A stretch of 64,000 bases of DNA from Candidatus Saccharimonadia bacterium (GCA_038245115.1 JBBRSS010000004.1:1804-65803), one strand, 5' to 3'. Shown: positions 1,672-33,594, counted from the stretch's first letter. The notes: a model not told the origin generated them from the sequence alone. Translations and numbers: made by a program.

Positions 1672-3855
1672 TTATCGCCGCACACGTGAGAGCTTCGATG
1701 GCCACCAAATACTGTGGCCAATGTCGTAAGATAACGCCGGGACCAGGAGTGATCTCACGATTATTGTGTCTAACAACACCCCGAATGCAACTATAAACGC
1801 GAGCTGGGCCAAGAACAGAATCGGTATAATCGCGAGGGCCGCAAAGGTGGCTGCCAAGACCATTCCCGCCGAGGTAATAACACTGCCCGTTACTCCCAGC
1901 CCACGCAATATCCCCGGACGGGTACCAATTTTCAACGACTCCTCGCGCACTCGAGTCATGAGAAAAATATTGTAATCAACGCCGAGCGCCACCAAGAACA
2001 CAAAACCAAATAATGGCACCGTTGGATCTGCCCCAGGGAAGTTTAGTAGATGGTTAAATACCAGAGCCGACACGCCCAAGGTTGCAGCGTAGCTAATAAC
2101 CACACTCAAGATTAGCAGGATAGGCGCCAAGATAGAACGTAGCAATAGCATCAGTATCAGCAAAATTACCACCAGTACGATCGGGATTATCCTGTAGAGG
2201 TCGGCGCGAGCAGTATCGTTACTATCGATAGCGATAGCGGTCACACCGCCAACTTTCACGGTAGAGTCCGTACTCGGTAACGCCTGCCTTAGGTTACGTA
2301 CCACCAGCTCGGCCGCCGCCGAGTCAGCCTGGTCTATTAGGGTGGCATTAATGAGCGCTTTGCCATCAACAACTTTGGGTGCTGGACGATTGGAGGCCGT
2401 GGGGTCGACCGGTCCAGCGTAAATGTAGGCAGCCCCGATGCCGGCGGTGCCCCCGACCGCTTTGAGAGTATCCTGAGCCTTGGCTTCATCGGTAATAATA
2501 GCCACCGGACTGCCCGATCCGGCGTCGAAATGCTTGCCAAGCGCCTGCTGCCCGTCAACCGCCTCCGACTTTGACAGAATCAGGGCGGTTTGGGAGACGC
2601 CGCTGGCTTTGAGTTGCGGCAAGCCCAAAATACAGGCCCCTAGAACAGCCAAAGCGACCAGCCAAGTCGTCCGCGGTCGACGCGCAATTAGGCTGCCAAC
2701 TCCCCTCCAAAAGCCGGGAATGCCCTCAAGCCCAGTTGCATTGTTTGTGGTATTCGCATGCGGGTGGGCGAGATTAATTTTGGGCGTTAGCGGCCAGTAT
2801 GCCTTGCGTCCAAAGGCAAACAGTAGCGCCGGCAGCAGCGACATCGCGGCCAGGAATGAGAAGAAAATGCCGATGGCGGCAATCGGACCCAGGCTGCGGT
2901 TGGAATTGAGGTCAGAGAATAATAGGCAAAGCAGGGCCAAAATTACCGTTGCGGCTGACGCGGCTATTGGCTCTATCGAGTTTTTTATGGCATGCATAAT
3001 CGCTACCCATTTACTCTCGACTGTTTCCAGGGCTTCACGATAACGAGCGCAAAGCAACAGTGAGTAATCTGTCGCTGCGCCGATCACCAGTATGGATAGA
3101 ATGCCCTGGCTCTGCCCGTTGAGTTTAATCCAGCCCCAACTAGCCATGAAGTAGACCAGTAATATTGCAGCAGTAAGGGCGAACATGGCAGTAAACAGAA
3201 CCACAAAGGGCAGTATTATTGATCGGTAAACCAAGAGCAAAATAACAAAAACCGCCCCAATAGCTACCAGTAACAAAATACCGTCAATTCCGCCGAAGGC
3301 AGATACGAGGTCGGCGGTTAGTCCCGCCGGGCCCGTTACGTATCCAACAGTCCCATCTGGCGTATTGGCGCTCACTTGCTTACGTAGCTCCTTTACAACC
3401 ACGCCCACATTGTTGGTATCAGCCACGGGGACGATATATTCTACGGCCAAACCGTCTACCGATGGTATCGGACCCGCCACCGCTGTAGACTGTCCCGCCG
3501 GAGCTGACTGAACTCCGCTAACTGAGCCCAAATTCACGCCCAGCTTCACCAACTGAGGCAGTTGTGACGGAGTAATTTTGACGGGGGAGGTTACTACTAC
3601 AATTGCCGGAATAGATTTGGAGGCCGCAAACTTAGCTTGAACAGATTGGACTTTGGTACTCTCGGCGCTCGCTGGCAAAAACGATGCCTGATCATTGCTC
3701 GACACCGATTTGAGCTTGCCGAAAGTCGGCCCTCCTACACCTGCCGCAATAAACCACCCAACTATAACAATTGCCGGCAGCACAATTCGCACCCAACGGG
3801 CGGGTCCGTTATTGGGCATTGGTTTCACAGCTTCTCGTTTTGGTGAATGTGGCAT
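1672..3855 (-). CDS. MMPL-family (RND superfamily) membrane transporter
   Basis: 727 aa with two 6-TM bundles, each followed by a large extracytoplasmic loop. Carries the MMPL-typical GVDYNIFLMTRVREE signature. Confidence 0.8.
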   Translation of the reverse strand: MPHSPKREAVKPMPNNGPARWVRIVLPAIVIVGWFIAAGVGGPTFGKLKSVSSNDQASFLPASAESTKVQSVQAKFAASKSIPAIVVVTSPVKITPSQLPQLVKLGVNLGSVSGVQSAPAGQSTAVAGPIPSVDGLAVEYIVPVADTNNVGVVVKELRKQVSANTPDGTVGYVTGPAGLTADLVSAFGGIDGILLLVAIGAVFVILLLVYRSIILPFVVLFTAMFALTAAILLVYFMASWGWIKLNGQSQGILSILVIGAATDYSLLLCARYREALETVESKWVAIMHAIKNSIEPIAASAATVILALLCLLFSDLNSNRSLGPIAAIGIFFSFLAAMSLLPALLFAFGRKAYWPLTPKINLAHPHANTTNNATGLEGIPGFWRGVGSLIARRPRTTWLVALAVLGACILGLPQLKASGVSQTALILSKSEAVDGQQALGKHFDAGSGSPVAIITDEAKAQDTLKAVGGTAGIGAAYIYAGPVDPTASNRPAPKVVDGKALINATLIDQADSAAAELVVRNLRQALPSTDSTVKVGGVTAIAIDSNDTARADLYRIIPIVLVVILLILMLLLRSILAPILLILSVVISYAATLGVSALVFNHLLNFPGADPTVPLFGFVFLVALGVDYNIFLMTRVREESLKIGTRPGILRGLGVTGSVITSAGMVLAATFAALAIIPILFLAQLAFIVAFGVLLDTIIVRSLLVPALSYDIGHSIWWPSKLSRVRR

Positions 3856-3967
3856 AAAATTTTAACTTTCAGGCTCTTATAACTCCACAATTTTAGTCCA
3901 TGTCGTGATCTAAAGTAAAACAGGCGCAGTTGCGTGGCACTAGCTAGGTTTCGGCGAGCAAATGACC

Positions 3968-3983
3968 TGTGATCTTAATCACA
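3968..3983. promoter_or_regulatory. Perfect CRP-family palindrome TGTGATCTTAATCACA in the divergent MMPL / cytochrome-b-like intergenic region
   Basis: TGTGA-N6-TCACA read directly from the sequence. It sits 86 bp upstream of the 4069 start and about 113 bp upstream of the 3855 start. Confidence 0.45.
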
Positions 3984-4068
3984 CTGTACGGCACAGCATA
4001 AGTGGTATATTTAACAAAATAATAATGACGCCGCTCGCGAGTTTCGCTCGTCGGTCGCCAAGGAACAA

Positions 4069-5478
4069 ATGGCTAAACGCAATTCTTCTTCCAGACCAAT
4101 TCGCACTGCCCTGCAAAATCTCATGATTCGCGATGTCCCGTCCTATGCCAACAAGTTCGCCTATTCGCTGGGTTTTCTTTCGGCCGTCTCATTCTTTTTG
4201 CTAGTTGCCACCGGCATTATTATGGCTATGGCCGGGCCTCATTGGTGGATAACCAGCTCCTTAGGGCAGTATCTGCGCAGCTTCCATCTCTGGGCTACCC
4301 AAGCCTTCGTCGTATTTATCCTGCTGCATTTAACGATTGTATTTCTAACGTCAGGCTACAAAGGCTCCCGCAAATTCACCTGGGTGCTGGGCGTCTTGAT
4401 GTTCTTCTTTGCTCTAGCCGAAGCCGAATTCGGTTACGTATTGCGTGGAGATTTCTCCTCTCAATACCGCAGCCTGCAGGGTTCCGACCTCTACAACGGC
4501 AGCGGTATAGGCTGGGTTCTCAACAACCTCAACACCGGTCAAGTCATGGGCATTCACATTGCAGTATTGCCGCTGACCTTAATTGTCCTCATTCTGGCCC
4601 ATTATTTTCTTGTGCGGGTCCTTGGTATTGGCAAGCCGTCACCGGCCGCCGACGCTTACCCGATGGTCAAAGCGAATCACGGCTTACTATTTTGGCGCGG
4701 CGGTACCGTAATTGCGCTGGTGGCGGCCTTGGCCTTTGCTTACCCTTCGCCCTATTTGGCGCCGCTGACTATCAGCAAGATTGCCAGTGACGATCCGGCG
4801 CTAATTTCGCAAACCCTCGTTAAGGAATTTGACGGCACATCCGACACCGCCACCTATAAAAACAATATTGCCCCGTACACGTTTAATTCGCGGTCCGTCT
4901 ATATCGAGGCCCCCTATACGCAGCTTAAGGCTACCCAGACCACTCCTAGCCAATTGAAGCTGTTCCTGGCACAGCCAGCCGAGGTTCAAAAGACGCAGCT
5001 TGATGCCGCCACGGCGTTTTATGCTGCCGACCCAGTGAGCAAAACGCTGCCCAAGGGCAACCAGGCCATCGCCGTAGTCGACAGCCTTACGACCATGGCA
5101 AAAAGCGGCCTCTACGAAGCCGCTCTGCGCGACAGCAACGGATCCGGCTACCAAACTACTTATGTGGTCAGGTTCTTGTCTGATACTGGTGTACCCGAAG
5201 AAACCGCCACTAGTATGAATATGACCACAGATCAATACGGCATGGTTCGCGAAGAGGCCAACAGCCAAGCACCCGGCGCTTGGTGGCTGGCACCAATCGG
5301 GTTGCTCAACCACACCGTCCTGGCCAAAGATGAGGACAACGGCGACCGCGACGGTGCTATCATTATTGGCACCTCCTTGCTTCTGTTGCTGGCCTTTCCC
5401 TTTATTCCGTTCCTAAACCGGCTTCCTGAGGTGTTGCGTATACGCAAGCTGTTTTGGCGCAAACCAAGCTCCAAGTAG
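4069..5478 (+). CDS. Di-heme cytochrome b N-terminal-domain protein (b6 type) fused to a roughly 200-aa extracytoplasmic domain between two extra TM helices
   Basis: Helix B carries H-x13-H (FHLWATQAFVVFILLH) and helix D carries H-x14-H (GIHIAVLPLTLIVLILAH), which is the b6-type spacing. RKFTWVLGVLMFFFALAEAEFGYVLRGDFSSQ matches the cytochrome b TW..G....AF.GYVLPWGQMS block. The quinol-site C-terminal domain is absent, replaced by a TM, a soluble domain and a final TM. Confidence 0.65.
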   Translation: MAKRNSSSRPIRTALQNLMIRDVPSYANKFAYSLGFLSAVSFFLLVATGIIMAMAGPHWWITSSLGQYLRSFHLWATQAFVVFILLHLTIVFLTSGYKGSRKFTWVLGVLMFFFALAEAEFGYVLRGDFSSQYRSLQGSDLYNGSGIGWVLNNLNTGQVMGIHIAVLPLTLIVLILAHYFLVRVLGIGKPSPAADAYPMVKANHGLLFWRGGTVIALVAALAFAYPSPYLAPLTISKIASDDPALISQTLVKEFDGTSDTATYKNNIAPYTFNSRSVYIEAPYTQLKATQTTPSQLKLFLAQPAEVQKTQLDAATAFYAADPVSKTLPKGNQAIAVVDSLTTMAKSGLYEAALRDSNGSGYQTTYVVRFLSDTGVPEETATSMNMTTDQYGMVREEANSQAPGAWWLAPIGLLNHTVLAKDEDNGDRDGAIIIGTSLLLLLAFPFIPFLNRLPEVLRIRKLFWRKPSSK

Positions 5479-5540
5479 TTATCGCAAGGTTCTCCTGTCC
5501 TTCTCATCTAATTCTAAGCAAATCGTAGTACATTTGGCTC

Positions 5541-5993
5541 ATGAAAAAACTCTTACTAGGTGCATTTGTTGTCGGAAGCTATATCATATATAGCTTCCAT
5601 CAGCGCGGGGAGGGATCAGCGGCCGTGGTGCCGCCATCTATCCAATCCACGCCGCCCGCCTCAGGGGCTACTGCCACTCCAGGTGCTGCCTCTACGCCTG
5701 CTGTTGCCTATAAGGACGGGCAATATACCGGCCAGTCTGCCGATGCCTACTACGGCTACATTCAGGTAAAAGTGACGATCTCCGGGGGTAAACTGTCCAA
5801 CGTTGAATTCTTGCAATCTCCCAGTGATCGATCCACCTCGGTGCGAATTAACTCTCAAGCCATGCCCTACCTCAAACAGGAGGCCATACAGGCTCAGAGC
5901 GCCGGCGTAGACGGTGTTTCTGGCGCCACCGATACCAGCCAAGCTTTCATCCAGTCCCTAACATCTGCGCTCAAAGCCGCACAAGCAGCTTGA
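5541..5993 (+). CDS. Membrane-anchored FMN-binding-domain protein (FMN_bind), predicted ApbE flavinylation substrate
   Basis: N-terminal TM (LLLGAFVVGSYIIYSF), a Pro/Ala/Thr linker, the YKDGQYTG FMN_bind start, and the flavinylation motif VDGVSGAT (Thr codon at 5928-5930). Confidence 0.75.
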   Translation: MKKLLLGAFVVGSYIIYSFHQRGEGSAAVVPPSIQSTPPASGATATPGAASTPAVAYKDGQYTGQSADAYYGYIQVKVTISGGKLSNVEFLQSPSDRSTSVRINSQAMPYLKQEAIQAQSAGVDGVSGATDTSQAFIQSLTSALKAAQAA

Positions 5994-6733
5994 AACAGAC
6001 CCGACAAATAATGGGTATGCCGGTGACGCTTATTGTCGAGGATGAAACTGCCTCCGCAGACATATTTGATCAAGCCTATGCTTATTTTACGAAGGTCGAT
6101 CAAGCCTACAGCCCGTACATCGCCACCAGCGAAGTCTCGCGAATTAACTCTGGCCTGCCCGAATCTGATTGGAGCCCCCAAATTACCGAGGTCGCGCAAC
6201 TATGCCGCGACACCTCCACTGCCACCGATGGCTATTTCGACGCCTGGCATCACGGCAAATTCGATCCCTCCGGTATCGTCAAGGGCTGGGCTATCAATAA
6301 TGCCGCCAAGCTATTGAGCAGCCTTGGTTGTCAAAATTATTACGTTGAAGCGGGTGGCGACATTCAGGTGAGCGGTTTTAACGCTTCGCACGAACCTTGG
6401 CATATTGGCATTCGCAACCCGTTTGATCGCCGGCAGAACGTCAAGGTGGTCTCGCTTAGTACCCAGGGAATTGCCACCTCGGGGCTTTATATCCGCGGCG
6501 CACATATATACAACCCACACGATGATAAAGCGCAACTTTCCGAAGTCGCTTCTCTGAGCGTCATCGGGCCAAATATTTACGAAGCCGACCGCTTCGCCAC
6601 CGCTGCTTTTGCAATGGGCCCTGCCGGCATCAATTTTATCGAGTCGCTGCCGGGCCTAGAGGCTTATATGATAAATAAGTCAGGCCAGGCGACGCTCACA
6701 AGCGGCTTCGAGCAGTATGTGAGGGCTAATTGA
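5990..6733 (+). CDS. apbE: ApbE-family FAD:protein FMN transferase (short form with no signal peptide)
   Basis: MGMPVTLIV, FDPSGIVKGWA, AGGDI and NPHD blocks of ApbE. TTG start in a TTGA overlap with the upstream stop. 247 aa beginning directly at the conserved MG.P block. Paralog of 13712..14449. Confidence 0.7.
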   Translation: MKQTRQIMGMPVTLIVEDETASADIFDQAYAYFTKVDQAYSPYIATSEVSRINSGLPESDWSPQITEVAQLCRDTSTATDGYFDAWHHGKFDPSGIVKGWAINNAAKLLSSLGCQNYYVEAGGDIQVSGFNASHEPWHIGIRNPFDRRQNVKVVSLSTQGIATSGLYIRGAHIYNPHDDKAQLSEVASLSVIGPNIYEADRFATAAFAMGPAGINFIESLPGLEAYMINKSGQATLTSGFEQYVRAN

Positions 6734-8247
6734 TGAAATATCTCGATAAATTCCTCGACCGCATCACCATGTACCATTTGTTGGTCTATTACTTGTACGC
6801 GCTTCTGGGTGCTGCCATGCTATTGAGTGCAGTTGGCGCCTTGGCATATAATCCGCTGGCAATCGCTATTTCTGCCGGTTATTTAGTAGCGGTTTGCCTG
6901 GTAGCCAACCGTGTCTTTGCGGCCATCTTTAAAGCCCCAAGCAATCCTGAGTCATCCCTCATTACTGCCCTCATTTTGGCTTTAATTATTACGCCGCTAG
7001 CCTCTATCCAGAGCCTGGTATTCTTAACTGCCGCCGCCGGGCTCGCTATTGCCTCAAAGTATTTACTGACCATCCGGGGACGGCACATTTTTAACCCCGC
7101 CGCAGTGGCCGTAGCACTAACGGCGGTGGGCGCCGGCGAATCTGCCAGCTGGTGGGTGGGCAGCGCGGCTCTAGCTCCGGTGGTGATCATTGGCGGCATC
7201 ATGTTAGTACGCAAGGTCAGGCGGGTCCAGATGGTGGCGCTGTTCATTATCACTGCCGTGGTCGCTACGTCTATATTAACCATCATCAGCCAAGGCAATG
7301 TCGTCGGCGAAATCCAAAAAACCTTCCTGCAGTCATCATTGCTCTTTCTTGCATTTGTGATGCTCACTGAGCCGTTGACCTCGCCCGCACAAAGTCGTCA
7401 TCAACGCTGGTATGCCATATTGGCCGGGGTACTCTTTCCGCCCCAGATTCATTTGCTGTCGCTCTATTCCACGCCCGAACTTGTGCTGCTAATTAGTAAC
7501 ATCTATGCCTATATCGTTAATCCCAAGGTCAAGCTGTTGCCTTTGCTCCAAAAAAAGATTTCTTGGGGTCCGAATACTGCCGATTTTGTCTTTGCCCTCG
7601 ACCAGCCGATAGATTATTTGCCGGGACAATATATGGAATTTACTTTGCCGCACTCCAAACCGGACTCTCGCGGCAGCCGGCGTTACTTTACACTCGCGTC
7701 GTCACCAACTGAAAATAATCTTCGCTTGGGCGTTAAATTCTATCCCCGAGGCAGTACATTCAAACAGGCACTTCGCAACATGGGCAAGACTACGCCCTTC
7801 GCTGCGGCCCAGTTGAGTGGCGACTTTGTTCTCCCCAACGACTCTACCCGCAAACTCGCCTTCGTCGCCGGCGGTATCGGCGTGACACCATTTAGGAGTA
7901 TGATCAAATACTTGTCCGACACCGACGACCCCAGATCTGTGACCTTATTGTATTCCGAGCGGACCGCGGCCGATTTGGCGTACGTTGATGTATTCACGGC
8001 CGCCCAAGCCAAACCTGGGACCAAAATTGTCTATACCCTCACCGATGCCAACACAGCGGTACCGACAGGCATGCAGGCTGGGTTCATTACTGCCGAAATT
8101 ATTCAAGCCGAAATTCCTGACTACAAAGACCGTCTTTTCTACATTTCCGGGTCTCATTCTATGGTAAGTGCTATGCAGTCAGCCCTAGGCGAGCTCGGAG
8201 TATCTAAGCACAATATTAAGATTGATTTCTTCCCCGGCTACGTTTAA
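6733..8247 (+). CDS. Fusion of a polytopic membrane domain (NqrB/RnfD-like, HIFNPA motif) with an FNR-type FAD/NAD(P)-binding oxidoreductase domain
   Basis: N-terminal ~270 aa with about 8 TM and GRHIFNPAAV. C-terminal RRYFTLASSP (FAD RxYS/T motif) and AFVAGGIGVTPF (NAD GGxGxxP). TGATG overlap with apbE. Confidence 0.6.
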   Translation: MKYLDKFLDRITMYHLLVYYLYALLGAAMLLSAVGALAYNPLAIAISAGYLVAVCLVANRVFAAIFKAPSNPESSLITALILALIITPLASIQSLVFLTAAAGLAIASKYLLTIRGRHIFNPAAVAVALTAVGAGESASWWVGSAALAPVVIIGGIMLVRKVRRVQMVALFIITAVVATSILTIISQGNVVGEIQKTFLQSSLLFLAFVMLTEPLTSPAQSRHQRWYAILAGVLFPPQIHLLSLYSTPELVLLISNIYAYIVNPKVKLLPLLQKKISWGPNTADFVFALDQPIDYLPGQYMEFTLPHSKPDSRGSRRYFTLASSPTENNLRLGVKFYPRGSTFKQALRNMGKTTPFAAAQLSGDFVLPNDSTRKLAFVAGGIGVTPFRSMIKYLSDTDDPRSVTLLYSERTAADLAYVDVFTAAQAKPGTKIVYTLTDANTAVPTGMQAGFITAEIIQAEIPDYKDRLFYISGSHSMVSAMQSALGELGVSKHNIKIDFFPGYV

Positions 8248-8266
8248 TTGGTGGCCCACTGTAACC

Positions 8267-8665
8267 TTACTTATCGCGCCGGTGATCAATTCGCTCACCA
8301 AAAACTTGTGCATCCTGGCCAGCTGGGTAGCCACCCTGCATAGTCTTTTCTTCGGCGCCCGCAACATCTAGCGCAACTCCGCCCGAAGACCTCAGGACAA
8401 GGTTAAACACAAAGCCGTTCACGTAACCAATCAACCATCCGATGGCAAAGTAGACAACGGGTAACACAAACAGTGACAAGGCACCGATCGTCATACCCAT
8501 AAGCAACCCCTGTATCAAACTATCGGTGGCATTCGTGTACGCAATTGTCCCGCTAAACAAATACATTATTGACACTACCAGACCAATAATCGCACCAAAC
8601 ACACCCTCAAACATCGCTACTGTTGATGGCTTAATTCCTGTAACCATTACCTCTCGTTCATTCAT
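8267..8665 (-). CDS. Hypothetical small membrane protein (3-4 TM)
   Basis: ORF of 132 aa with hydrophobic helices, convergent with the upstream redox module. Confidence 0.4.
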   Translation of the reverse strand: MNEREVMVTGIKPSTVAMFEGVFGAIIGLVVSIMYLFSGTIAYTNATDSLIQGLLMGMTIGALSLFVLPVVYFAIGWLIGYVNGFVFNLVLRSSGGVALDVAGAEEKTMQGGYPAGQDAQVFGERIDHRRDK

Positions 8666-8841
8666 AATTCCGTACTCCTTATACCCAAAATTCTAAGCCT
8701 CCTCCAAGGCGCTAGACATTGGAAGATCATCCATGAATTCTGCACATCCGAAGCATTATTTTCGACAATACTAGGCTCCCGGTGGGCATTACCGGGTGCG
8801 ACCGTTTTCGTCCAGTTAGGCCTGCTAACATATATTCGCCC

Positions 8842-10884
8842 TTAGGCAGCGGCGGTCAGCGCAGGCGCCGCAAACTGGCTATTGTATAGCGAAGCGTAGA
8901 AACCGTCCCGGTATATAAGCTCCTCGTGAGTGCCCTGCTCCACAATATTGCCATCCTGCATTACCAGTATTAAGTCGGCGTTTCGGATCGTCGACAGCCG
9001 GTGCGCAATCACAAAGCTAGTCCGGCCCTTCATGAGCCGCTCCATGGCAGCCTGAATCATTATCTCCGTACGAGTGTCAACCGAGCTTGTCGCCTCGTCG
9101 AGGATCAACATGGGGGTGTCGGCTAACATGGCACGCGCAATCGTAATCAACTGCTTCTCGCCCTGAGAGATATTGTCTGCTTCCTCGTTGAGCATCATCT
9201 TATATCCGCCGGGCAGAGCGCGAATGAAGTGGTCGGCATGCGCCGCTTCTGCTGCCTCAACCACTTCCTGGTGAGTAGCCTTGGATTTACCGTAAGCAAT
9301 ATTGTCCTCGATTGTGCCATTAAATAACCAAGTGTCTTGCAGAACCATGCCAAATAGGCGTCGCACATCCGAGCGCTTCATCTCGCGGATATCAACACCA
9401 TCCATCCTGATACTGCCTTCGCTAACATCGTAAAATCGCATGAGCAGGTTTACGATTGTCGTCTTGCCGGCTCCCGTCGGGCCAACGATCGCCACCCGCT
9501 GACCCGGTCGAATAGCCGCATTCAAGCCCTTGATGACGGTTTTATCTGGGGTATAGCCAAAGACCACATTATCAAACTCAACGGCGCCCCTGACCTTGTC
9601 GATCGCGACGGGACTAGCTGCCTCCGCGACCTCTTCGTCCTCATCCAAGAATTCAAATACTCGCTCGGCCGCCGCTGCCGTAGACTGCAATACGTTAGCA
9701 ATGTTGGCAGTCTGGGCAATTGGCTGGGTGAACTGGTTCATATATTGAATAAATGCCTGAATATCACCGATGTTGACCTTGCCGTTAATTGCCAGCCATC
9801 CGCCTAACACCGCCACCGCAACATATCCTAAATTGCCCACGAATTGCATTATCGGCATCATTAACCCGGAGAGAAATTGTGACCGCCAAGCACTTCCGTA
9901 CAGCTCGGTATTAATCGAGCGAAATTTCCCAACTGAGCGCTTTTCACCGTTAAATGCCTTCATGACGGTATGGCCCGATAGCATCTCTTCCACGTGGCCG
10001 TTTATCTTGCCGAGAGACACCTGTTGGGCAACAAAATAGCCCTGTGACTTTCCGACGATCAGCTTTATTAGCACCATGCTAACCGGTAGCACCAACAGCG
10101 CGACCACCGTCATTTGCCAGCTAATCGTCAGCATAATAATCAGGATGCCGATTATGGTTGTCACCGAGGTTACGATCTGGCTCAGACTTTGGTTCAGGGT
10201 TTGGCTGACGGTATCGACATCGTTGGTCACCCGGCTCAGGACTTCGCCGTGCGTACGGTTATCAAAATATCGCAGCGGCAAGCGGCTGATTTTCTCGGAA
10301 ATATCGCGGCGTAAGTTAAAAGTTACCTTTTGTGATACGCCGGACATTATCCAGCCTTGAATGTAGCTAAAGAGGGCGCTAATGACGTAGAGTCCCACCA
10401 GCAACTCCACTAGCTTGGCGATGCCGCCAAAATCGATCGTTGGCCGTTTGGACAGGTTTAGGGTGGCAATTTTATTGAGCTCTTTGGCGGGAATTCGCTT
10501 GATATCACTTGCCGGCATCAGTTTAATCAACTGGGCCCCGGTCATACCCGGCGGAATATGCATGCCGGCAGGTAGTTTTCGCATCACTTGGTCGTAAACC
10601 ATCCCGTCTATATAACCGGTAGCAACTTTATTGGTGACGTTGCCCAATATTTTTGGACTGACTACCGCAAAAATTGTACTGGCAATCGCAAATATTAGCA
10701 CCGCCACAATCGATAATCTAAATGGCCGCAGGTATTTCAGCAGGGTTCGCATTGTTCCCTTGAAATTCTTTGGTTTCTCGGCCGGCCCGCCCATCATTGG
10801 ACCTCGTCCCATCCCCATTCCTAATGTTGCGGGAGGAGGGCTTTTGGGAGTTCGCGGTGCCGAGTTGGAGTGATTATTGCTCAT
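8842..10884 (-). CDS. ABC exporter, fused permease/ATPase (type I, MsbA-like), heterodimer partner 2
   Basis: 6-TM domain plus NBD with Walker A GPTGAGKT, signature ISQGEKQ and Walker B ILDEATS. 4-nt overlap with the upstream ABC gene. Confidence 0.85.
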   Translation of the reverse strand: MSNNHSNSAPRTPKSPPPATLGMGMGRGPMMGGPAEKPKNFKGTMRTLLKYLRPFRLSIVAVLIFAIASTIFAVVSPKILGNVTNKVATGYIDGMVYDQVMRKLPAGMHIPPGMTGAQLIKLMPASDIKRIPAKELNKIATLNLSKRPTIDFGGIAKLVELLVGLYVISALFSYIQGWIMSGVSQKVTFNLRRDISEKISRLPLRYFDNRTHGEVLSRVTNDVDTVSQTLNQSLSQIVTSVTTIIGILIIMLTISWQMTVVALLVLPVSMVLIKLIVGKSQGYFVAQQVSLGKINGHVEEMLSGHTVMKAFNGEKRSVGKFRSINTELYGSAWRSQFLSGLMMPIMQFVGNLGYVAVAVLGGWLAINGKVNIGDIQAFIQYMNQFTQPIAQTANIANVLQSTAAAAERVFEFLDEDEEVAEAASPVAIDKVRGAVEFDNVVFGYTPDKTVIKGLNAAIRPGQRVAIVGPTGAGKTTIVNLLMRFYDVSEGSIRMDGVDIREMKRSDVRRLFGMVLQDTWLFNGTIEDNIAYGKSKATHQEVVEAAEAAHADHFIRALPGGYKMMLNEEADNISQGEKQLITIARAMLADTPMLILDEATSSVDTRTEIMIQAAMERLMKGRTSFVIAHRLSTIRNADLILVMQDGNIVEQGTHEELIYRDGFYASLYNSQFAAPALTAAA

Positions 10885-12683: not shown

Positions 12684-13106
12684 TTACTTAGAATCCTGCA
12701 GTAGTCCTAGGATACGGTCAAGTTCCTGCATATCGCTACGGTTTAATTTATCCAACATTCCCCCGGCGTGCCTCATTTTTTCCTTGAGTAACTGCACTAG
12801 CTTCTTCCCGGCTTCGGCCGACAATGCCAGGTAAATACTGCGACGGTCGTTCTCGTCCGGCGTTCGTATGAGCCAGCCGGATTCAACCAACCGATCGGCC
12901 AGCAGGGTAGCCGAGCCGGGAGAAATGAGCAACTCATCCGCCAGCTCGCGCATCCGTATCGGCTGTTCGTTCTTGATGAAGAACAGTGCCTGCATTTGGT
13001 GCATGGTGAGGTTCTCCACGCCGGTGTCTCCGGCGCTTTGTTGTCTCATCCGGCGGTTGATCTGGTACCAGTGGGTCAATATTGAACGCTTGAGATCTTC
13101 TTGCAT
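12684..13106 (-). CDS. MarR-family transcriptional regulator, first gene of the marR-abc-abc operon
   Basis: wHTH block LTMHQMQALFFIKNEQPIRMRELADELLISPGSATLLADRLVESGWLIRTPDENDRRS. Start taken at the internal Met (MQEDLK...), giving 140 aa. Confidence 0.75.
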   Translation of the reverse strand: MQEDLKRSILTHWYQINRRMRQQSAGDTGVENLTMHQMQALFFIKNEQPIRMRELADELLISPGSATLLADRLVESGWLIRTPDENDRRSIYLALSAEAGKKLVQLLKEKMRHAGGMLDKLNRSDMQELDRILGLLQDSK

Positions 13107-13109
13107 TTG

Positions 13110-13248
13110 AAACCAATATATTACGTTAGCGATACTAATAGTTCGTATATAAAAGTAATATACGCAACTAACCCTCGAATCGTCAATCAATCATTCTTAA
13201 GCCAAACTTTATTCGGTTGACTACTTCAAAATGGGACTATAATGATAA
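13110..13248. promoter_or_regulatory. AT-rich divergent promoter region with dyad repeats (CGTATATAAAAGTAATATACG; TTAGCGATACTAA), candidate MarR operators
   Basis: Inverted repeats read directly from the sequence between the divergent marR and dsbB-like starts. Confidence 0.3.
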
Positions 13249-13707
13249 ATGGTTATGAATAAACTCAACCCCAAGTCAGATAAGCCTCATCTGCCCGTCG
13301 CCGCTATAGTCGCCTGGGTTACCGCCCTGCTCGCCTCGGCCGCCAGCGTTTACTTTATCGAAATCTTGCACAACCCAGTTGCTACATTGTGTTGGGTTGA
13401 CCGAATGTTGGTCTTTTCGCTCCTGCTCGTGCTCACCGTTGGCATTATCGACCGAGACCGGCGCGTCGTGCGTTTTTGTTTCCCGTTTTTGGCCCTGGGT
13501 CTACCGCTGTCTTTCTATCAGCAGCTCGTGCATTGGGACCTCATCCACATCAATCCTCAGGTTTGCAGCATCAGCTATGTTTGTACAACCAAATATTTCA
13601 ATCTCTTCGGCATTATTACTCAAGCCACCCTCTGTTTTGCCGCTTTCGTCATTATTGCCGTGTCGATGTATATGCTGCGGGATCGTCACTTGCCAGCCAA
13701 GCCCTAG
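13249..13707 (+). CDS. DsbB/BdbC-family disulfide-oxidoreductase-like membrane protein with loop-1 CxxC replaced by TxxC
   Basis: Four TM. SVYFIEILHNPVATLCWVDRM aligns to the BdbC PCxLCWYQR block but keeps only one Cys. The second periplasmic loop keeps C-x5-C (CSISYVC) and the YFNLFG block. Confidence 0.5.
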   Translation: MVMNKLNPKSDKPHLPVAAIVAWVTALLASAASVYFIEILHNPVATLCWVDRMLVFSLLLVLTVGIIDRDRRVVRFCFPFLALGLPLSFYQQLVHWDLIHINPQVCSISYVCTTKYFNLFGIITQATLCFAAFVIIAVSMYMLRDRHLPAKP

Positions 13708-13711
13708 CTGG

Positions 13712-14449
13712 TTACGGCCGCTCAAACCTGCGAAAACCTTCGGTTAATACTACTCGGCCCTGCTTGTCGATCGACATTGCCTCGTAACCTTGTCTATGTA
13801 AAAACGGTAATGCTTGATCGCCCATGCAAAATGCCGCCGTCGCCAGAGCATCAACTTGGTCAATTGTTGGGCCGATTACGGTTAGACTCACCGGGTCCTC
13901 AACCATCTGCCCGGTTCGAGGATTGTATATATGGTTGCCGCGTTCGTAATTGCCCGAGGTAGCAACGGCCATATTTTTAAGGTAAAGCTTTTTTGCCAAC
14001 TTAGTGGGGTCAAAAGGATGGGCGATCCCGATAACCCATGGGCCTCCGGATGGTCCGTCGCCGCTAATCTGCATATCGCCCCCGGCATTAATGCAGTACC
14101 GGGTGATGTCGCGGCTGTTGAGGAGTCGTGCTGCGCGGTAAATAGCCCACCCCTTAACGTATCCGGACGGGTCGATATGCCCATCTCGTGCCACGTCAAA
14201 GTACCCTTCGGTCAATTTTTTCAAACGGGCGCATTCCTCCAGCACCGCCCGCAAATCATCACTCGATTTCGGCAACTCTAATTCGCCGCGGTTAAGCCGA
14301 CTAACCTCGCTTGTGGGCTTATAGGTACTAAACGCCTCGTCAACCTCGTGGAAATATTCAAATACATCGTCGATGGCGGCGTCCGCCGCATTGCCGTCAA
14401 GCACCTCTAGGGTGATAGGCATACCCATTATATTTTGTGAAACTTTCAT
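13712..14449 (-). CDS. apbE: ApbE-family FAD:protein FMN transferase, second paralog (no signal peptide)
   Basis: MGMPITLEV, HIDPSGYVKGWA, AGGDMQ and NPRTG blocks. Collinear with the 5990..6733 protein at about 40-50% identity. Confidence 0.7.
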   Translation of the reverse strand: MKVSQNIMGMPITLEVLDGNAADAAIDDVFEYFHEVDEAFSTYKPTSEVSRLNRGELELPKSSDDLRAVLEECARLKKLTEGYFDVARDGHIDPSGYVKGWAIYRAARLLNSRDITRYCINAGGDMQISGDGPSGGPWVIGIAHPFDPTKLAKKLYLKNMAVATSGNYERGNHIYNPRTGQMVEDPVSLTVIGPTIDQVDALATAAFCMGDQALPFLHRQGYEAMSIDKQGRVVLTEGFRRFERP

Positions 14450-14458
14450 GACTTTCTA

Positions 14459-16060
14459 TTGTACAATAACCATATGCACGATACGCCGCTAGAGAACGCG
14501 CAAAAGCTCATTTCGGAAGGAAAATCGACGGCCGAAATAAGGGCTGCTCTCAATGGCGAAAGCTTTGTGCCTTCGCCAGCTGTTGCGCCGCAGGCAAGCC
14601 TCACCCCCGCCGCCTCGAATGCAGCCTCTTCGCCCAAACCCAACGCCTCGGCTTCGCCTCAGCCGCCCGCTTCGGCCCCTCCTGCTCCCGCACCGAAGCC
14701 GATGGTCTACCCGCCGCTGCTGGATACGCCGCTACGGACGGGCGTTCAGGCCCCCAAGCTAGGCTGGCCGCTGATAGTGCTGGCCTGTTTAATACCGGCG
14801 CTCGCAATATCAGTCGATACGCCCTTTGCTGAGCGATTTGGTAGTTTATCGAATGCCCTTATTGCTTTCGGCGACATTACAGGTGTCATTGGCCTGGCGG
14901 CGTACGTTCTCAATTTGGTGCTGGCAACCCGCTTTCATTGGCTGGAAGATTTGTTTGGCGGCCTCAACCGCGCCCTGATAGCCCATCAAGTTTTGGGCGG
15001 CATAGCACTTATTATGCTGCTATTTCACCCCATCCTCACGGCAGCCTCTTACTATTCCTACGGTGTCCAGGCAGTTGCCCATTTTTTTGTGCCTTCGGTC
15101 GCCTATATTGGCACGGCTTTCGGTATTGTTGCTCTCGCGATGATCATCATCTTGTTGGTCCTGAGTTTCTATATCAAAATTGGCTACCGACTATGGCTGC
15201 AAACCCATAAATACCTTGGTCTGGCCTATCTCCTCATAATGCTGCATGTCCTATTGACGCCGAATCGCATCACGGCTGACCCGTTTGTTAAATGGTACCT
15301 GTACCTTCTTCTGGTTGTGGGGGCATTTGCCTTTATTTATCGCACGTTACTGCCAAATATATTCGTCCGCCGGTATCTGTATACCATTGCCGCTGCGCAG
15401 CCCAAAGGCATCGGCGTAGTCGAGGTTACGTTGGCGCCAGTGAACAAATCCGTCCACGTTCGAGCTGGGCAATTTATTTTTGTGACATTCAGTAGCGATG
15501 GGCTATCGTCCGAATCGCACCCTTTTAGCATCTCATCGGGCGAGAACTCCAACCAGCTGATGATCGACGTCAAGTCGCTCGGGTCGTATACGGAAACTCT
15601 CACCCGGCTTCTACCGCATATGGTTGGCATGACGGCTCAGGTTGAGGGAGCATATGGCCGATTTTCGTACCGCAACATTGGGAATTTAAACCAAGTTTGG
15701 ATTGGCGGGGGAATAGGTATAACGCCGTTTCTGAGTATGGCGCAAACTCTCGGATCCGGGCCGTATAATATCGACCTGTATTACTCGGTAAAGACGGCAA
15801 GTGAGCTAATTGACCTCGACACCCTGGCGATCCATCAATCCAACCTACCGGGCCAGGTGTTTCGGACTTTTCCGTTTATCACTGAAACTTACAAGTCGTA
15901 CTTGAGTGCCGGCATCATCAAGAAGAATAGCGGCAATCTCGATAAACGGGACTTCCTCTTGTGCGGCCCGCCCGGCATGATGCAGGAAATCAAGAAGCAG
16001 CTCATAAAGCTTGGGGTCAAAGAAACTCGGATTCACAGCGAAGAATTCTCGCTCGAATAA
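14459..16060 (+). CDS. NOX/ferric-reductase-family flavocytochrome: a 6-TM bis-heme domain plus FAD and NAD(P)H domains, with a Pro/Ala/Ser-rich N-terminal extension
   Basis: TM3 has H-x13-H (IAHQVLGGIALIMLLFH) and TM5 has H-x12-H (THKYLGLAYLLIMLH), the NOX spacing. HPFSISS is the FAD motif and GGGIGITPF the NAD motif. The first ~95 aa are low-complexity. Confidence 0.7.
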   Translation: MYNNHMHDTPLENAQKLISEGKSTAEIRAALNGESFVPSPAVAPQASLTPAASNAASSPKPNASASPQPPASAPPAPAPKPMVYPPLLDTPLRTGVQAPKLGWPLIVLACLIPALAISVDTPFAERFGSLSNALIAFGDITGVIGLAAYVLNLVLATRFHWLEDLFGGLNRALIAHQVLGGIALIMLLFHPILTAASYYSYGVQAVAHFFVPSVAYIGTAFGIVALAMIIILLVLSFYIKIGYRLWLQTHKYLGLAYLLIMLHVLLTPNRITADPFVKWYLYLLLVVGAFAFIYRTLLPNIFVRRYLYTIAAAQPKGIGVVEVTLAPVNKSVHVRAGQFIFVTFSSDGLSSESHPFSISSGENSNQLMIDVKSLGSYTETLTRLLPHMVGMTAQVEGAYGRFSYRNIGNLNQVWIGGGIGITPFLSMAQTLGSGPYNIDLYYSVKTASELIDLDTLAIHQSNLPGQVFRTFPFITETYKSYLSAGIIKKNSGNLDKRDFLLCGPPGMMQEIKKQLIKLGVKETRIHSEEFSLE

Positions 16061-18193: not shown

Positions 18194-19135
18194 ATGAAAG
18201 CAGCTCAGATCAACGAATATGGTGATGCTGGTGTCGTAAGCACGGTTGATAATGCCAGCAAGCCGGGAATTGACCCGGGCCAGGTGCTCGTGGAAGTCTA
18301 CGCCGCGGGCGTAAATCCGTTCGACTGGAAGGTCCGCGAAGGCATGGTTCGGCAGATGGCCGAGCTCACATTCCCCGGGGCTGTCCTTGGCGGCGATTTG
18401 GCCGGAGTGGTCGCCGAAGTCGGTGCGGAAGTTACCGATGTGAAGGTCGGGGATGAAGTTTACGGCCTAGCCGGCGCCCTCAGTAGCCACGGTTCTTTCG
18501 CGCAGTTTGCGCCCGCCGCCGCTGGCTCTATTGGGGCTAAGCCCAAGAATATCGACTCCACCACCGCCGCCGCCCTGCCGCTGGCCGGAGTCAGCGCATA
18601 CCAGGCTCTCGTCGAAACGCTTCATTTGTCCTCGGGGCAAAAGATTCTCGTTCACGGCGGTGCCGGCGGTATCGGTAGCCTTGCCATCCAGCTTGCCAAA
18701 CACCTCGGAGCCACCGTGGCCACGACCGTCTCGGCGGCCGGGGTCAGTTACGTCAAGAGCCTCGGCGCCGACGTCGTCATTGACTACGAACAGCAGTCAT
18801 TCAAAGATGAACTGTCCGACTACGATGCGGTCTTTGATACCATCGGTGGCGAAGTCTATGCTCAGTCTTTTGAAGTCCTCAAGGAAGGCGGGTCTATCGT
18901 GTCCATGAGCGCGGCCGTCGATGAAGCCCTCGCGTCTGGGCACAAAGTCACGGCTTACTCGCAGTTCACTCAAGCCACTACCGAGCGGCTGGCCGAGCTC
19001 ACTAAGCTTGTCGAAAGCGGCGCCATCAAAGTTAATATCGACCGTCTCTTCCCGCTCGAGCAGGCCAGTGAAGCCCTCGAATACGTCAAAACCGGCCGCC
19101 CTATCGGCAAGGTTGTCATCAAAGTCCGGGACTAA
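18194..19135 (+). CDS. Zinc-independent MDR-family NADPH:quinone oxidoreductase
   Basis: GroES-like N-terminus, GGAGGIGSLAIQLAK Rossmann motif, 313 aa. Confidence 0.7.
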   Translation: MKAAQINEYGDAGVVSTVDNASKPGIDPGQVLVEVYAAGVNPFDWKVREGMVRQMAELTFPGAVLGGDLAGVVAEVGAEVTDVKVGDEVYGLAGALSSHGSFAQFAPAAAGSIGAKPKNIDSTTAAALPLAGVSAYQALVETLHLSSGQKILVHGGAGGIGSLAIQLAKHLGATVATTVSAAGVSYVKSLGADVVIDYEQQSFKDELSDYDAVFDTIGGEVYAQSFEVLKEGGSIVSMSAAVDEALASGHKVTAYSQFTQATTERLAELTKLVESGAIKVNIDRLFPLEQASEALEYVKTGRPIGKVVIKVRD

Positions 19136-19563
19136 ACTTCTTCGATCAGCTGCTTCATGCTGCCAAGCACCATAGTCCAATTCGAGGAGGCCTGTTCGCG
19201 GGCCTCCTCGTTGTCGTTGCCATCTTGTAGAATTACCACCTCAGTCCCGCCGTCGTGCTCATTTAACAGATAGCTCACGGTAACGTAATTCTCCGGCACA
19301 TCTGCCTTGCCGCTCATGCCCGACCAATAAGTACTCACTAGCTTCATGCCCGGCTCAGCCTCCAGTACCGTACCCTTATCTTCGTAGGCTTGGCCTTTCC
19401 ATTCACCCTTATACGTAATGGGGCTTCCCACCTGCCAATCCGAGGTGGCCTCCGTTCCAAACAGATAAACCTTGATCTGCTCCGGGTCAGTCAGCGCCGC
19501 CCACACCCTATCGGTATCCGCGTTAATGATGATTTTTGATTCAGCCACCAATCCTTTTGCCAT
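19132..19563 (-). CDS. SRPBCC-superfamily protein (AHSA1/Aha1-like)
   Basis: IINADTDRVWAALTDPEQIKVY start typical of the AHSA1/SRPBCC family. 143 aa. Confidence 0.6.
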   Translation of the reverse strand: MAKGLVAESKIIINADTDRVWAALTDPEQIKVYLFGTEATSDWQVGSPITYKGEWKGQAYEDKGTVLEAEPGMKLVSTYWSGMSGKADVPENYVTVSYLLNEHDGGTEVVILQDGNDNEEAREQASSNWTMVLGSMKQLIEEV

Positions 19564-26362: not shown

Positions 26363-28021
26363 ATGAATTTAAAAGACGATATTTCTCGAATTATATCTGG
26401 TGAAGTTGAGGATGCTCCCGAGGCCCTGGAAGCTTATAGCCACGATGCCAGTCTGTTCGAAGTCAAGCCACAAATTGTGGTCTATCCCAAGAACGCCGAT
26501 GACGTGAAGGCGTTAGTAAAGTACGCCAAAGCCAACAAAACCGAGAGCTCAAACCTTTCCATTACCGCCCGTAGTGCCGGTACCGATATGTCGGGCGGCG
26601 CGGTTAACGATTCAATCATTGCCGATTTTAACCGTCATTTTAACCAGATATTTGATGTTTCACCGACCCTCGGCCACGCTCAACCAGGCGTGTTCTACCG
26701 CGATTTCGAGAAAGCTACGTTTGAGCACAAAGCCCTCATGCCCAGCTATCCCGCATCGCGCGATCTCTGCACTATTGGCGGAATGGTCAATAATAATTCC
26801 GGCGGCGAAAAGTCGCTCGAATTTGGTAAGACCGAGGATTTCGTGACGCAGCTGAAGGTGGTATTTGCCGATGGCAACGAATACACTGTTGAGCCCCTCA
26901 CGCGGGAAATGCTCGAGGTTAAGAAGCAACTCAACACCTTTGAGGGCGAAGTATACCGCAAGACTTTCGACCTGGTCGATAAGCATTACGACGCCATTAA
27001 GGCCGCCAAGCCAAATGTCACCAAGAACTCCACCGGCTATAATCTCTGGGATGTCTGGGACCGCAAGACTGGTATTTTTGACCTCACCAAGCTGATCGTT
27101 GGCGCCCAAGGTACCCTCGGCCTCACCACCGACATCAAGTTCCGATTGGTGCCGCACCGGCCGCATTCCGGGGTGCTCGTCGTATTTTTACGCGATATCG
27201 ACCGCCTAGGCGAGGTCATTAACGTAGTTCTCAAGAGCAAGCCGGCATCGTTCGAATCATTCGATGACGTCACCCTCATGCTGTCTATTAAGTTCATGCC
27301 CTACTTCCTCAAGATGCTTGGACTCAAAAAGTTCATTCATTTATTGATTGGGCTCATCCCCGAAGGCTTTTTACTTCTGCGCGGTATCCCGAAGCTGATT
27401 CTTATGATCGAATTTAACGGTGAGACTGTCGATGAAGTTCGCGAAAAGGTGAAGGCCCTCGATCGCCAGCTCTACACCAAGCATGCCTATTACGAAATCG
27501 AAGGATCGGAAGAAGACCCTACCGAGAGTAAGGCCGAAAAGTTTTGGATAATGCGCCGCCAAAGTTTTCAAATTTTGCGCAAAAAGGTCAAAGACAAGCA
27601 CACTGCGCCGTTTATTGACGATTTGGTAGTCAACCCCGAGTATTTGCCCGAGTTTTTGCCGCAAATGCGCAAGATCATCAAGAAATACAACCTCTTTGCG
27701 ACGATAGCCGGCCACATGGGCGATGGTAACTTTCACATTATTCCATTGATGAAGCTCGAAAAGCAGTCCGAGCGCGATAAGCTTCGCCCTGCCATGCAAG
27801 AAACCAACGAGCTTGTGCTCAAGTATCATGGTGTTCTCTCCGGCGAACACAACGACGGCATGATCCGCGGCCCCTGGCTGCAGCGAGCGTACGGTGACGA
27901 AATTTATGGTTATTTCAAAGACGTCAAAGATATTTTCGACCCCCAGGGCATCTTCAACCCCCACAAAAAGGCTAATGCCGACTGGGATTGGACCATGAGC
28001 CACATCCGGCAGTCATTCTAG
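26363..28021 (+). CDS. FAD-linked oxidase (PCMH-type FAD-binding; GlcD/D-lactate dehydrogenase-like)
   Basis: FAD_binding_4 block YPKNADDVKALVKYAKANK...ITARSAGTDMSGGAV plus an FAD-oxidase_C-like C-terminus. 552 aa. Confidence 0.7.
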   Translation: MNLKDDISRIISGEVEDAPEALEAYSHDASLFEVKPQIVVYPKNADDVKALVKYAKANKTESSNLSITARSAGTDMSGGAVNDSIIADFNRHFNQIFDVSPTLGHAQPGVFYRDFEKATFEHKALMPSYPASRDLCTIGGMVNNNSGGEKSLEFGKTEDFVTQLKVVFADGNEYTVEPLTREMLEVKKQLNTFEGEVYRKTFDLVDKHYDAIKAAKPNVTKNSTGYNLWDVWDRKTGIFDLTKLIVGAQGTLGLTTDIKFRLVPHRPHSGVLVVFLRDIDRLGEVINVVLKSKPASFESFDDVTLMLSIKFMPYFLKMLGLKKFIHLLIGLIPEGFLLLRGIPKLILMIEFNGETVDEVREKVKALDRQLYTKHAYYEIEGSEEDPTESKAEKFWIMRRQSFQILRKKVKDKHTAPFIDDLVVNPEYLPEFLPQMRKIIKKYNLFATIAGHMGDGNFHIIPLMKLEKQSERDKLRPAMQETNELVLKYHGVLSGEHNDGMIRGPWLQRAYGDEIYGYFKDVKDIFDPQGIFNPHKKANADWDWTMSHIRQSF

Positions 28022-28150: not shown

Positions 28151-28584
28151 TTATTCCGGTGGCGTTTGCCGATCGGGCCGGTGGGTGCGGCGTCTCATTT
28201 GAGCCACGCCCAGACGGACGGTTTGGCGGTCCACCAGTTCTTGGGCACGGGCCAGCTCGTGTTTGTCGCCAGCCTTTGCCTTAAGCGCCTCGGCTTCAGC
28301 TAAAGCTATCTGAATCTCTCCCTGCACCAACGAGTCTTCGTGTTCAGCCTCGTCGGCCAAGACGCGTGTAGCGTCTGGTGTGACTTCCAGCAGGCCCCCG
28401 AACGTCGCAAAGATTGTCTGCTTGCCGCCTTTTTCGCGCACCACTACCGAACCTGGCTTCACGACGGCGGTGAGCGGTTCGTGATTCGGCAATACACCGA
28501 TTTGGCCGTTCGCCGTGGTGAGAGTAACCTCTGTCACCTCGCCACGGAATTTGGCCCCGGTTAATGTGAGCAGTTCAAACAGCA

Positions 28585-28585
<1 letters not shown>
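28151..28585 (-). CDS. atpC: F1 ATP synthase epsilon subunit
   Basis: Operon position; GQIGVLPNHEPL; C-terminal helices. Confidence 0.8.
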
Positions 28586-30856
<2,271 letters not shown>

Positions 30857-30859
30857 TGA

Positions 30860-32395: not shown

Positions 32396-32775
32396 CGGCT
32401 GACTCCTTGTACAAATGTTGCGAGCTTAGTTCGAACGGTAGCATCGAGGTGCGCATCGGGGGTCTCTATTTGAGCTCCGCCGATAATTGCTGGGTCCACT
32501 GCAGTATCAAGCTCCAGCTCTTTGGCACCCGTAGCTTCTCGAATAAATTTCTCAATCCGACCTTGGGTTTCGTCGGACATCGGCCGCGCGGTGGTGACCC
32601 TGGCGCTCACGTAACCGCGGGAGGCCAATACTTTGGCGACGTCCCTCGCCAAATATCCGGCCTGGCGCTGTCGCCCGGTGCTTACCAACCAGGCCGCGGC
32701 CGACTTCATCGCGCCGTTTCGGTCGGATGTGAGGGAGCTAGCCACGTGGGCAGCTACTTGTGCGCGGCTGGCCAT
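32392..32775 (-). CDS. atpH: ATP synthase delta (OSCP) subunit, short 127-aa form
   Basis: [26 protein letters not shown] is the OSCP C-terminal block. 4-nt overlap with atpA. Confidence 0.7.
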
Positions 32776-33302: not shown

Positions 33303-33309
33303 AGTTAAA

Positions 33310-33525
33310 TTACTTGAGGAACTTAATGATCAGCGCGACCACCAGGCCGATGATGGCCAAGGCGTCCACGAAACCCATGGCGAGAATCATCATGGTACGA
33401 ATCTTGCCGATGGCGTCGGGGTTACGGCCGACTGCGCCGACGGCAGCAGCGCCTACGAGCCCGAGGCCTACGGCGGCCAAGCCGCCAGCGATTGAATATG
33501 TTAGTCCGAATGCGAGGGAATCCAT
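33310..33525 (-). CDS. atpE: Fo ATP synthase c subunit (ion-binding carboxylate is Asp)
   Basis: 71-aa hairpin with GRNPD loop and ..FVDALAIIGLVVAL... Confidence 0.85.
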   Translation of the reverse strand: MDSLAFGLTYSIAGGLAAVGLGLVGAAAVGAVGRNPDAIGKIRTMMILAMGFVDALAIIGLVVALIIKFLK

Positions 33526-33594
33526 TGAGGAATGTTCCTTTATTTATTATGTACTTTGATGAAATATATCTTGACTGTTAAGAATATAAGCTCA

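Follow-up and report, generated by a model that had tools for sequence, protein, structure and literature searches.

Predicted NQR/RNF-like electron-transfer genes and a cytochrome b6-like neighbour in a Candidatus Saccharimonadia bacterium

A row of four genes at positions 4069 to 8247 of a 64,000-nucleotide stretch of DNA from Candidatus Saccharimonadia bacterium (GCA_038245115.1, JBBRSS010000004.1:1804-65803; this whole stretch is called the window below) encodes a cytochrome b-like protein, an FMN_bind protein, an ApbE-family flavin transferase and a fused NqrB/RnfD-like membrane protein, and raises the question of whether these proteins work as one transmembrane electron-transfer chain. 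An earlier note on this DNA had proposed a flavinylation-dependent system comprising all four components. Its general idea agrees with what three of the genes encode, but not with the cytochrome b, a homologue of which lies near the fusion gene in just 1 of 80 loci. Judging from domains, motifs and gene neighbourhoods, we consider it likely, with real room for doubt, that the FMN_bind, ApbE and fusion genes (the triad) encode an NQR/RNF-like unit that exports electrons, and that the cytochrome b is a member of a separate, narrow family and not a conserved component. The judgement is a joint one: it includes that the triad (5541-8247) is a single translationally coupled unit, that the cytochrome b6-like protein carries two b hemes, and that its gene came to adjoin the triad within the genus-level lineage of the window alone.

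All four open reading frames (ORFs) lie on the plus strand, and their proposed boundaries were confirmed. The cytochrome b-like gene (4069-5478, 469 amino acids) opens the row, although it had been described as following the fusion. Behind it come the genes for the NqrC/RnfG-like FMN_bind protein (5541-5993, 150 amino acids), for the ApbE-family FAD:protein FMN transferase (5990-6733, 247 amino acids), which overlaps both adjoining genes, and for the NqrB/RnfD-like::ferredoxin-NADP reductase (FNR) fusion (6730-8247, 505 amino acids). The claim that the genes overlap holds for these three, which are joined by TTGA at 5990-5993 and TTGATG at 6730-6735, but not for the cytochrome b gene, which ends 62 nucleotides ahead of the FMN_bind gene (spacer 5479-5540, inspected by sequence and by consensus scan) and, unlike the triad genes among themselves, is not translationally coupled to its neighbour. 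Scanning positions 3700-8800 for terminators and promoters gave counts no higher than in shuffled sequence, with none in the spacer, and a search of the whole window against Rfam had no match, hence no FMN riboswitch. The domain searches that had been suggested as a check bore out the assignments of the individual proteins, since the matches to cytochrome b, FMN_bind, ApbE, NQR2_RnfD_RnfE and FAD_binding_6/NAD_binding_1, judged against curated Pfam cut-offs, all lie above them. The di-heme b6-type cytochrome b, the membrane-anchored FMN_bind protein with the motif DGVSGAT, the ApbE flavin transferase and the FNR-type FAD/NAD(P) domain fused to an NqrB/RnfD-like domain are thus all encoded here, on the evidence given below for each.

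The fusion protein consists of an NqrB/RnfD-like membrane domain (6730-7524, residues ~1-265; delimited by Pfam) and an NqrF-like FNR-type FAD/NAD(P)H domain (7525-8247, residues ~266-505; Pfam and PDB). The membrane part matches NQR2_RnfD_RnfE (PF03116; 2.9e-11, 43.7 bits against a cut-off of 27.7), and the FNR part matches FAD_binding_6 (3.8e-5) and NAD_binding_1 (PF00175; 1e-12), its closest PDB structures being those of NqrF (3.4e-15). An alignment of 30 homologues showed the stretch MLTEPxTSP to be invariant in the NqrB-like domain, together with residues R317, R318, T321, G381, G382, I383, G384, T386, P387 and the C-terminal aromatic Y504 in the FNR part; from knowledge of the FNR family we take the latter set to be FAD- and NAD(P)H-binding motifs. 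A motif search of the fusion protein revealed no [ST]GA[ST] flavinylation motif, and in the FNR part a Pfam scan revealed no iron-sulfur (Fe-S) domain. The closest homologues, both of the fusion and of the cytochrome b, are named Saccharibacteria, Saccharimonadales or Patescibacteria.

The FMN_bind protein (Pfam FMN_bind, 3.9e-10) is composed of an N-terminal hydrophobic anchor, a linker rich in Ser, Thr, Pro and Ala, and the FMN-binding domain. The hydrophobic segment is MKKLLLGAFVVGSYIIYSF, and its lysine/arginine (K/R) charge bias predicts that the N-terminus is inside. The ApbE target motif DGVSGAT occupies residues 124-130 (SGAT 127-130), with Thr130 (nucleotides 5928-5930) as the predicted flavinylated residue. 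Among 64 homologues from loci in GTDB, 59 have the anchor and 62 the flavinylation motif; the charge bias is N-in in 47 and opposite in 3, and one carries a twin-arginine motif. A second SGAT lies in the linker at residues 41-44 (nucleotides 5661-5672; context PPASGATATPG), outside the FMN_bind domain, and is probably coincidental. The transferase encoded at 5990-6733 (Pfam ApbE, 6.6e-40) is strongly similar to solved FAD:protein FMN transferases, with PDB matches down to 2.9e-17.

To see which of these genes belong together, we scanned GTDB with the 30-sequence fusion alignment, obtained 80 loci and searched them by tblastn with the four window proteins. The loci are distributed over Saccharibacteria, other Patescibacteria classes, Chloroflexota/Ktedonobacteria, Actinomycetota and others. 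In about 63 of the 75 loci with ORF calls an FMN_bind and an ApbE gene adjoin the fusion gene, in most cases directly upstream. Clustering of the neighbouring ORFs returned three conserved families only, namely the fusion (75 loci), FMN_bind (63) and ApbE (63), the next being an ABC ATPase (22); no conserved terminal reductase or cytochrome was found around the triad in these 75 loci. Of the 80 loci, L028 alone has a cytochrome b homologue no more than 10 kb from the fusion gene; it lies 4 kb upstream in opposite orientation, separated by unrelated genes and adjoining an EamA transporter gene. Absence of co-occurrence in other genomes had been named in the earlier note as the outcome that would speak against the whole module; the triad does recur in most of the 80 loci, and it is the cytochrome b that drops out. 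The L028 locus is also peculiar in having two tandem FMN_bind genes (8955-9955) upstream of the fusion and no adjoining ApbE. In the window an EamA gene (809-1660) likewise lies upstream of the cytochrome b gene.

This conservation bears on the idea that the locus is a decaying, functionless remnant of an Rnf/Nqr operon. Just the NqrB-, NqrC- and NqrF-like parts are left, and the NqrB-like domain is short (~265 amino acids) and scores far under the NCBIfam cut-offs (TIGR01946 rnfD, 1.2e-6 and 28.2 bits against 207; RsxD, 21.5 bits against 415). But the ORFs are intact, at least 120 full-length fusion homologues are listed at 56-79% identity, about 100 positions are invariant in the 30-sequence alignment, and the three-gene order is kept across several phyla, which makes decay extremely improbable.

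We then compared the locus with described systems. The NQR/RNF-like system of Méheust et al. 2021 (PMC8238504) is defined by an N-terminal PF03116 domain fused to a C-terminal PF00175 domain in flavinylation-associated clusters, that is, no more than five genes from ApbE (PF02424) or FMN_bind (PF04205). It was reported in 127 genomes, mainly of Actinobacteria and the candidate phyla radiation (CPR), and one-way electron flow from NAD(P)H to the outside was proposed. Huang et al. 2024 (PMC10979944) presented an AlphaFold-multimer model of the Ktedonobacter complex with two subunits, an NqrC/RnfG-like protein, which is membrane-anchored and extracytosolic, and the fusion, in which the Thr flavinylated in NqrB/RnfD is not retained. 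The fusion of an NqrF-like to an NqrB-like protein had already been remarked in a soil Saccharibacterium (Starr et al. 2018, PMC6031116). The window locus has the single-protein fusion with FMN_bind and ApbE genes directly upstream and overlapping. It thus shares with the published system the PF03116::PF00175 fusion, the NqrC/RnfG-like FMN_bind protein with its motif and the adjoining ApbE, the taxa (candidate phyla radiation, Ktedonobacteria and Actinobacteria), and the retention of SGAT in the FMN_bind protein with no [ST]GA[ST] in the fusion. It differs in that the published system comprises two subunits and ApbE, whereas this locus and at least two close relatives add a cytochrome b6-like gene directly upstream. 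Cytochrome b is mentioned neither in Méheust et al. 2021 (PMC8238504) nor in Huang et al. 2024 (PMC10979944), and PF13631 and PF00033 were not found for NQR/RNF-like clusters in three supplementary files of the former. The assertion in the earlier note that no described system has this component mix has therefore to be withdrawn: the triad is the NQR/RNF-like system of these two papers, the fusion was on record in Starr et al. 2018 (PMC6031116), and the cytochrome b is the sole new element. As far as its sequence features allow the assignment, the triad is a further instance of a known, bioinformatically defined system, with the cytochrome b as a lineage-specific neighbour.

With true Na+-NQR and RNF complexes the locus shares homologues of NqrB/RnfD, of NqrC/RnfG and of the FAD/NAD domain of NqrF, as well as the dependence on ApbE. 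None of NqrA, NqrD/E (RnfA/E), RnfB and RnfC was detected by Pfam among the 59 largest non-overlapping ORFs of the window, and none is conserved around the 75 fusion loci; furthermore, the FNR part of the locus differs in having no Fe-S domain and the NqrB-like domain in having no covalent-FMN motif. A true NQR/RNF complex was ruled out by the missing subunits. Because these subunits, the Fe-S domain and the covalent-FMN motif are missing, electron flow is presumed to be one-way and not semicircular and ion-pumping. Flavin-based extracellular electron transfer (EET) of the Listeria type (Ndh2, EetA/B, PplA, FmnB, DmkA/B) has in common with the locus an ApbE-family enzyme and an FMN_bind surface protein as extracytosolic relay, but the locus would cross the membrane by a flavoprotein fusion and not by quinone. 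The scan of window ORFs gave no match to Ndh2, EetA/B or Dmk, the PplA model matched the locus with E = 0.0098 and 15.1 bits against a cut-off of 325, and this type of system was ruled out by its missing components.

By homology to NQR/RNF and with the published AlphaFold-multimer model as a guide, the triad can be assigned a plausible route. The cytoplasmic NqrF-like FNR domain would oxidise NAD(P)H via FAD, the electrons would traverse the membrane via one or more non-covalent flavin sites in the fused NqrB/RnfD-like domain, would be passed to the FMN placed by ApbE on Thr130 of the anchored NqrC/RnfG-like protein at the outer face, and would leave from there to an extracytoplasmic acceptor. 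The "complete path to an extracytoplasmic flavin" of the earlier note is accordingly right as to the domains, which are present, and goes too far as to the path, which is inferred.

The cytochrome b-like protein matches Pfam Cytochrom_B_N_2 (2.6e-12) and Cytochrome_B (2.3e-9) and has six predicted transmembrane (TM) helices. The likeness is confined to the N-terminal ~230 amino acids, the other ~240 belonging to no Pfam family. The four histidines expected to ligate heme (H73, H87, H163 and H178) occur without exception in 54 homologues and align with the ligands of cytochrome b6. A profile of these 54 sequences found cytochrome b6 as the best match in the PDB (1e-21), followed by actinobacterial QcrB; the alignment spans helices A-D, reaches helix E in long cytochromes b and stops at about position 229. 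Between TM5 and TM6 lies a conserved helical ectodomain of ~200 amino acids (residues ~232-430), which is predicted to be outside and for which neither a Pfam family nor a PDB fold match was found. The protein thus shares with the cytochromes b of bc1, b6f and bcc complexes the four-helix di-heme core, the Hx13H and Hx14H histidine pairs and a fifth helix aligning with helix E, and differs from them in its family-specific ectodomain and in having no CxGG heme-cn motif (as defined in Dibrova et al. 2017, PMC5600118), the equivalent position reading YSLG (FAYSLGFLS). Pfam and the PDB profile alignment revealed neither a Cytochrom_B_C/subunit IV domain nor a PEWY motif. A conserved stretch, PGAWWLAP, lies just ahead of the last helix. 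We considered whether PGAWWLAPIGLLNH and the last helix correspond to the PEWY/ef-loop and helix F of long cytochromes b, but with no PDB alignment past about profile position 229 this was unproven and was dropped. Rieske and cytochrome c or f genes were absent both from the Pfam-scanned window ORFs and from 13 other cytochrome b neighbourhoods, and a bc1/b6f complex was ruled out, there being no Rieske protein, cytochrome c or subunit IV.

The family is small. Searched exhaustively, 1.84 billion cluster representatives yielded 1,280 cytochrome b-type matches, just 28 of them below 1e-30 and only a handful full-length. One full-length homologue comes from the cultivated DPANN archaeon Nanobdella aerobiophila (WP_258393181.1; 30% identity over the full length including the ectodomain, E = 5e-67), where the gene (AP019769.1, locus L094, 8001-9497) stands alone beside T2SS-E/F-type genes. 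Another (L095, 8001-9425; 42% identity) stands alone on a contig that looks archaeal and also carries genes for CDC48 and pyruvate dehydrogenase. From these sequences the family seems to be narrow and common to CPR and DPANN episymbionts. Dibrova et al. 2017 (PMC5600118) placed cytochromes b of Saccharibacteria, Patescibacteria and Ktedonobacteria in a heterogeneous subfamily G with no functional description, and this phylogenetic mention was the only one of a Saccharibacteria cytochrome b6 that we found in the literature.

Seeding the search with the cytochrome b showed how variable its surroundings are. Only the relatives at 87% and 84% identity keep the four-gene block, and there its flanks differ. 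At 76% identity (L088) the fusion gene is 5 kb upstream, with a Ferric_reduct/ApbE/FNR cluster between, and at 78, 75, 68, 56, 56 and 55% identity the cytochrome b gene stands alone among unrelated genes. Together with three distant full-length homologues that also stand alone, two of them the archaeal or archaeal-looking ones, this makes nine stand-alone contexts. The module can probably do without the cytochrome b gene. In the lineage at 75-76% identity a membrane protein of 125-128 amino acids starts 10-13 nucleotides past the cytochrome b stop codon (L088, 8414-8800; L092, 9420-9797); its two copies share 77% identity, have no Pfam family and are absent from the window, and it may be a lineage-specific partner of the cytochrome b.

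Several observations weigh against an electron-exporting triad with an independent cytochrome b. The chief one concerns ApbE: neither the window protein (5990-6733) nor any of the 63 cluster homologues (63/63) has a signal peptide, a lipobox or an N-terminal hydrophobic segment, while the FMN_bind partner looks Sec-exported. A leaderless ApbE is known from Klebsiella, where it acts on a cytoplasmic flavoprotein (review, PMC12052999). Known leaderless ApbEs have cytoplasmic substrates, whereas the partner here looks exported; this puts the assumed compartment of flavinylation in doubt and weakens the step to an extracytosolic FMN.

The triad might then not export electrons at all. ApbE would flavinylate the FMN_bind protein in the cytoplasm, and the complex would sit at the inner face or run in reverse; it might be a membrane-bound reductase of flavin or iron fed by NAD(P)H, or might bring electrons in to reduce NAD(P)+. 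The N-in charge bias of the FMN_bind anchor (47 of 64, against 3 with the opposite bias) and the Ser/Thr/Pro-rich linker, of a kind common in exported surface proteins, argue against this arrangement, as does the published model with its membrane-anchored, extracytosolic NqrC/RnfG-like subunit (PMC10979944). In its favour are the leaderless ApbE throughout the 63 clusters, the Klebsiella precedent (PMC12052999) and the VIT1 iron transporter that occurs in six NQR/RNF-like clusters (PMC8238504). On balance we regard a non-exporting triad as improbable, and electron export remains our preferred reading. A further point against that preference is that we extrapolate from homology for the acceptor, for the direction of electron flow and for the cofactors of the NqrB-like domain.

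The remaining points against it concern the cytochrome b. In at least three separate lineages (the clade of the window, L088 and L028) less than 6 kb separates its gene from the fusion gene, which looks like more than chance would produce in genomes of ~1 Mb, so that a looser functional link may exist; co-transcription with the triad in the lineage of the window is possible, given the terminator-free spacer of 62 nucleotides. A loose "redox island" association of the two is possible too. A stronger version of this link is a four-gene operon restricted to this lineage, in which electrons would pass from NAD(P)H to FAD, the NqrB-like domain, the outer FMN and then the outer heme of the cytochrome b; from there the second heme would deliver them to an inner-face acceptor such as a quinone, as in an NQR-like semicircle, or the ectodomain would hand them to an external acceptor. 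The shared strand, the short gap, the block kept intact in two relatives despite differing flanks and the proximity (<6 kb) in two further lineages are consistent with such a chain, as are the four heme ligands, all of them in place, and the predicted outer-face domain, which could dock an exported FMN domain. The window also encodes a DHO_dh protein (39644-40840, minus strand) whose Pfam match begins at residue 89, leaving an N-terminal extension of ~88 residues; we presume that this may mark the membrane-bound, quinone-using class 2 type, which suggests a quinone pool. But the cytochrome b is missing from 79 of the 80 triad loci, the triad occurs without it in other Patescibacteria, Chloroflexota and Actinomycetota, the cytochrome b stands alone in nine contexts, that of N. 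aerobiophila among them, and its gene is not translationally coupled to the triad. We therefore hold the four-gene chain to be an unlikely, though still serious, alternative. In the lineage of the window the cytochrome b may be a partner or acceptor of the triad, but as acceptor, or as a return path to quinone, it is a minority hypothesis. Somewhat more doubtful still is a broader proposal, that the protein is a dedicated outer-face redox partner of ultra-small episymbionts which was recruited in the window lineage as terminal acceptor or return path of the NQR/RNF-like unit, giving a minimal chain from NAD(P)H via FMN to heme b that would possibly tap host-derived quinones or acceptors on the host surface.

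With the triad read as an electron exporter and the cytochrome b as its neighbour, the locus adds no new kind of system. CPR bacteria mostly have no respiratory chains, and the NQR/RNF-like unit is one of their very few membrane redox devices. Two leads follow from the locus: the adjoining di-heme cytochrome b in one lineage is a testable candidate acceptor, and the leaderless ApbE in 63 of 63 loci, set against an exported-looking substrate, questions the assumed site of flavinylation and can be tested directly. With its unclassified ectodomain and its spread over CPR and DPANN, the cytochrome b family is also a small and tractable target for studying the redox metabolism of episymbionts.

A second flavinylation-type module lies further downstream in the window (13712-16060). 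It consists of a leaderless ApbE gene (13712-14449, minus strand; Pfam 9.5e-46) and, divergent from it, a gene for a 533-amino-acid protein with Ferric_reduct, FAD_binding_8 and NAD_binding_1 domains (14459-16060), with no FMN_bind gene adjoining. It fits the "MsrQ-like"/NOX-like class of Méheust et al. 2021 (PMC8238504), and the Ferric_reduct/ApbE/FNR cluster that separates the fusion and cytochrome b genes in L088 resembles it. Beside it are an ORF for a 152-amino-acid membrane protein with a weak DsbB match (13249-13707; E = 0.0018) and a MarR regulator gene (12684-13190). Elsewhere in the window are genes for F-type ATP synthase subunits (28151-34443, minus strand), an FAD-linked oxidase resembling D-lactate dehydrogenase (26363-28021) and MsrA (40793-41383); a terminal oxidase, a Rieske protein and NDH-2 were not found among the Pfam-scanned ORFs.

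The flanks of the four-gene block have been rearranged between relatives. Just downstream of the fusion, on the minus strand, an ORF at 8267-8665 encodes a hydrophobic protein of 132 amino acids with no Pfam family, which is 63% identical to a counterpart in L091 (12900-13298). Compared with L081 and L091, the window carries at 8267-18180 genes for two ABC exporters, MarR and a rhodanese-like protein as well as the second ApbE module, placed between the four-gene block and an ADH_zinc/AHSA1 pair (18194-19563). L091 has MarR, ABC and MMPL genes upstream instead; the region is rearranged and the four-gene block is intact.

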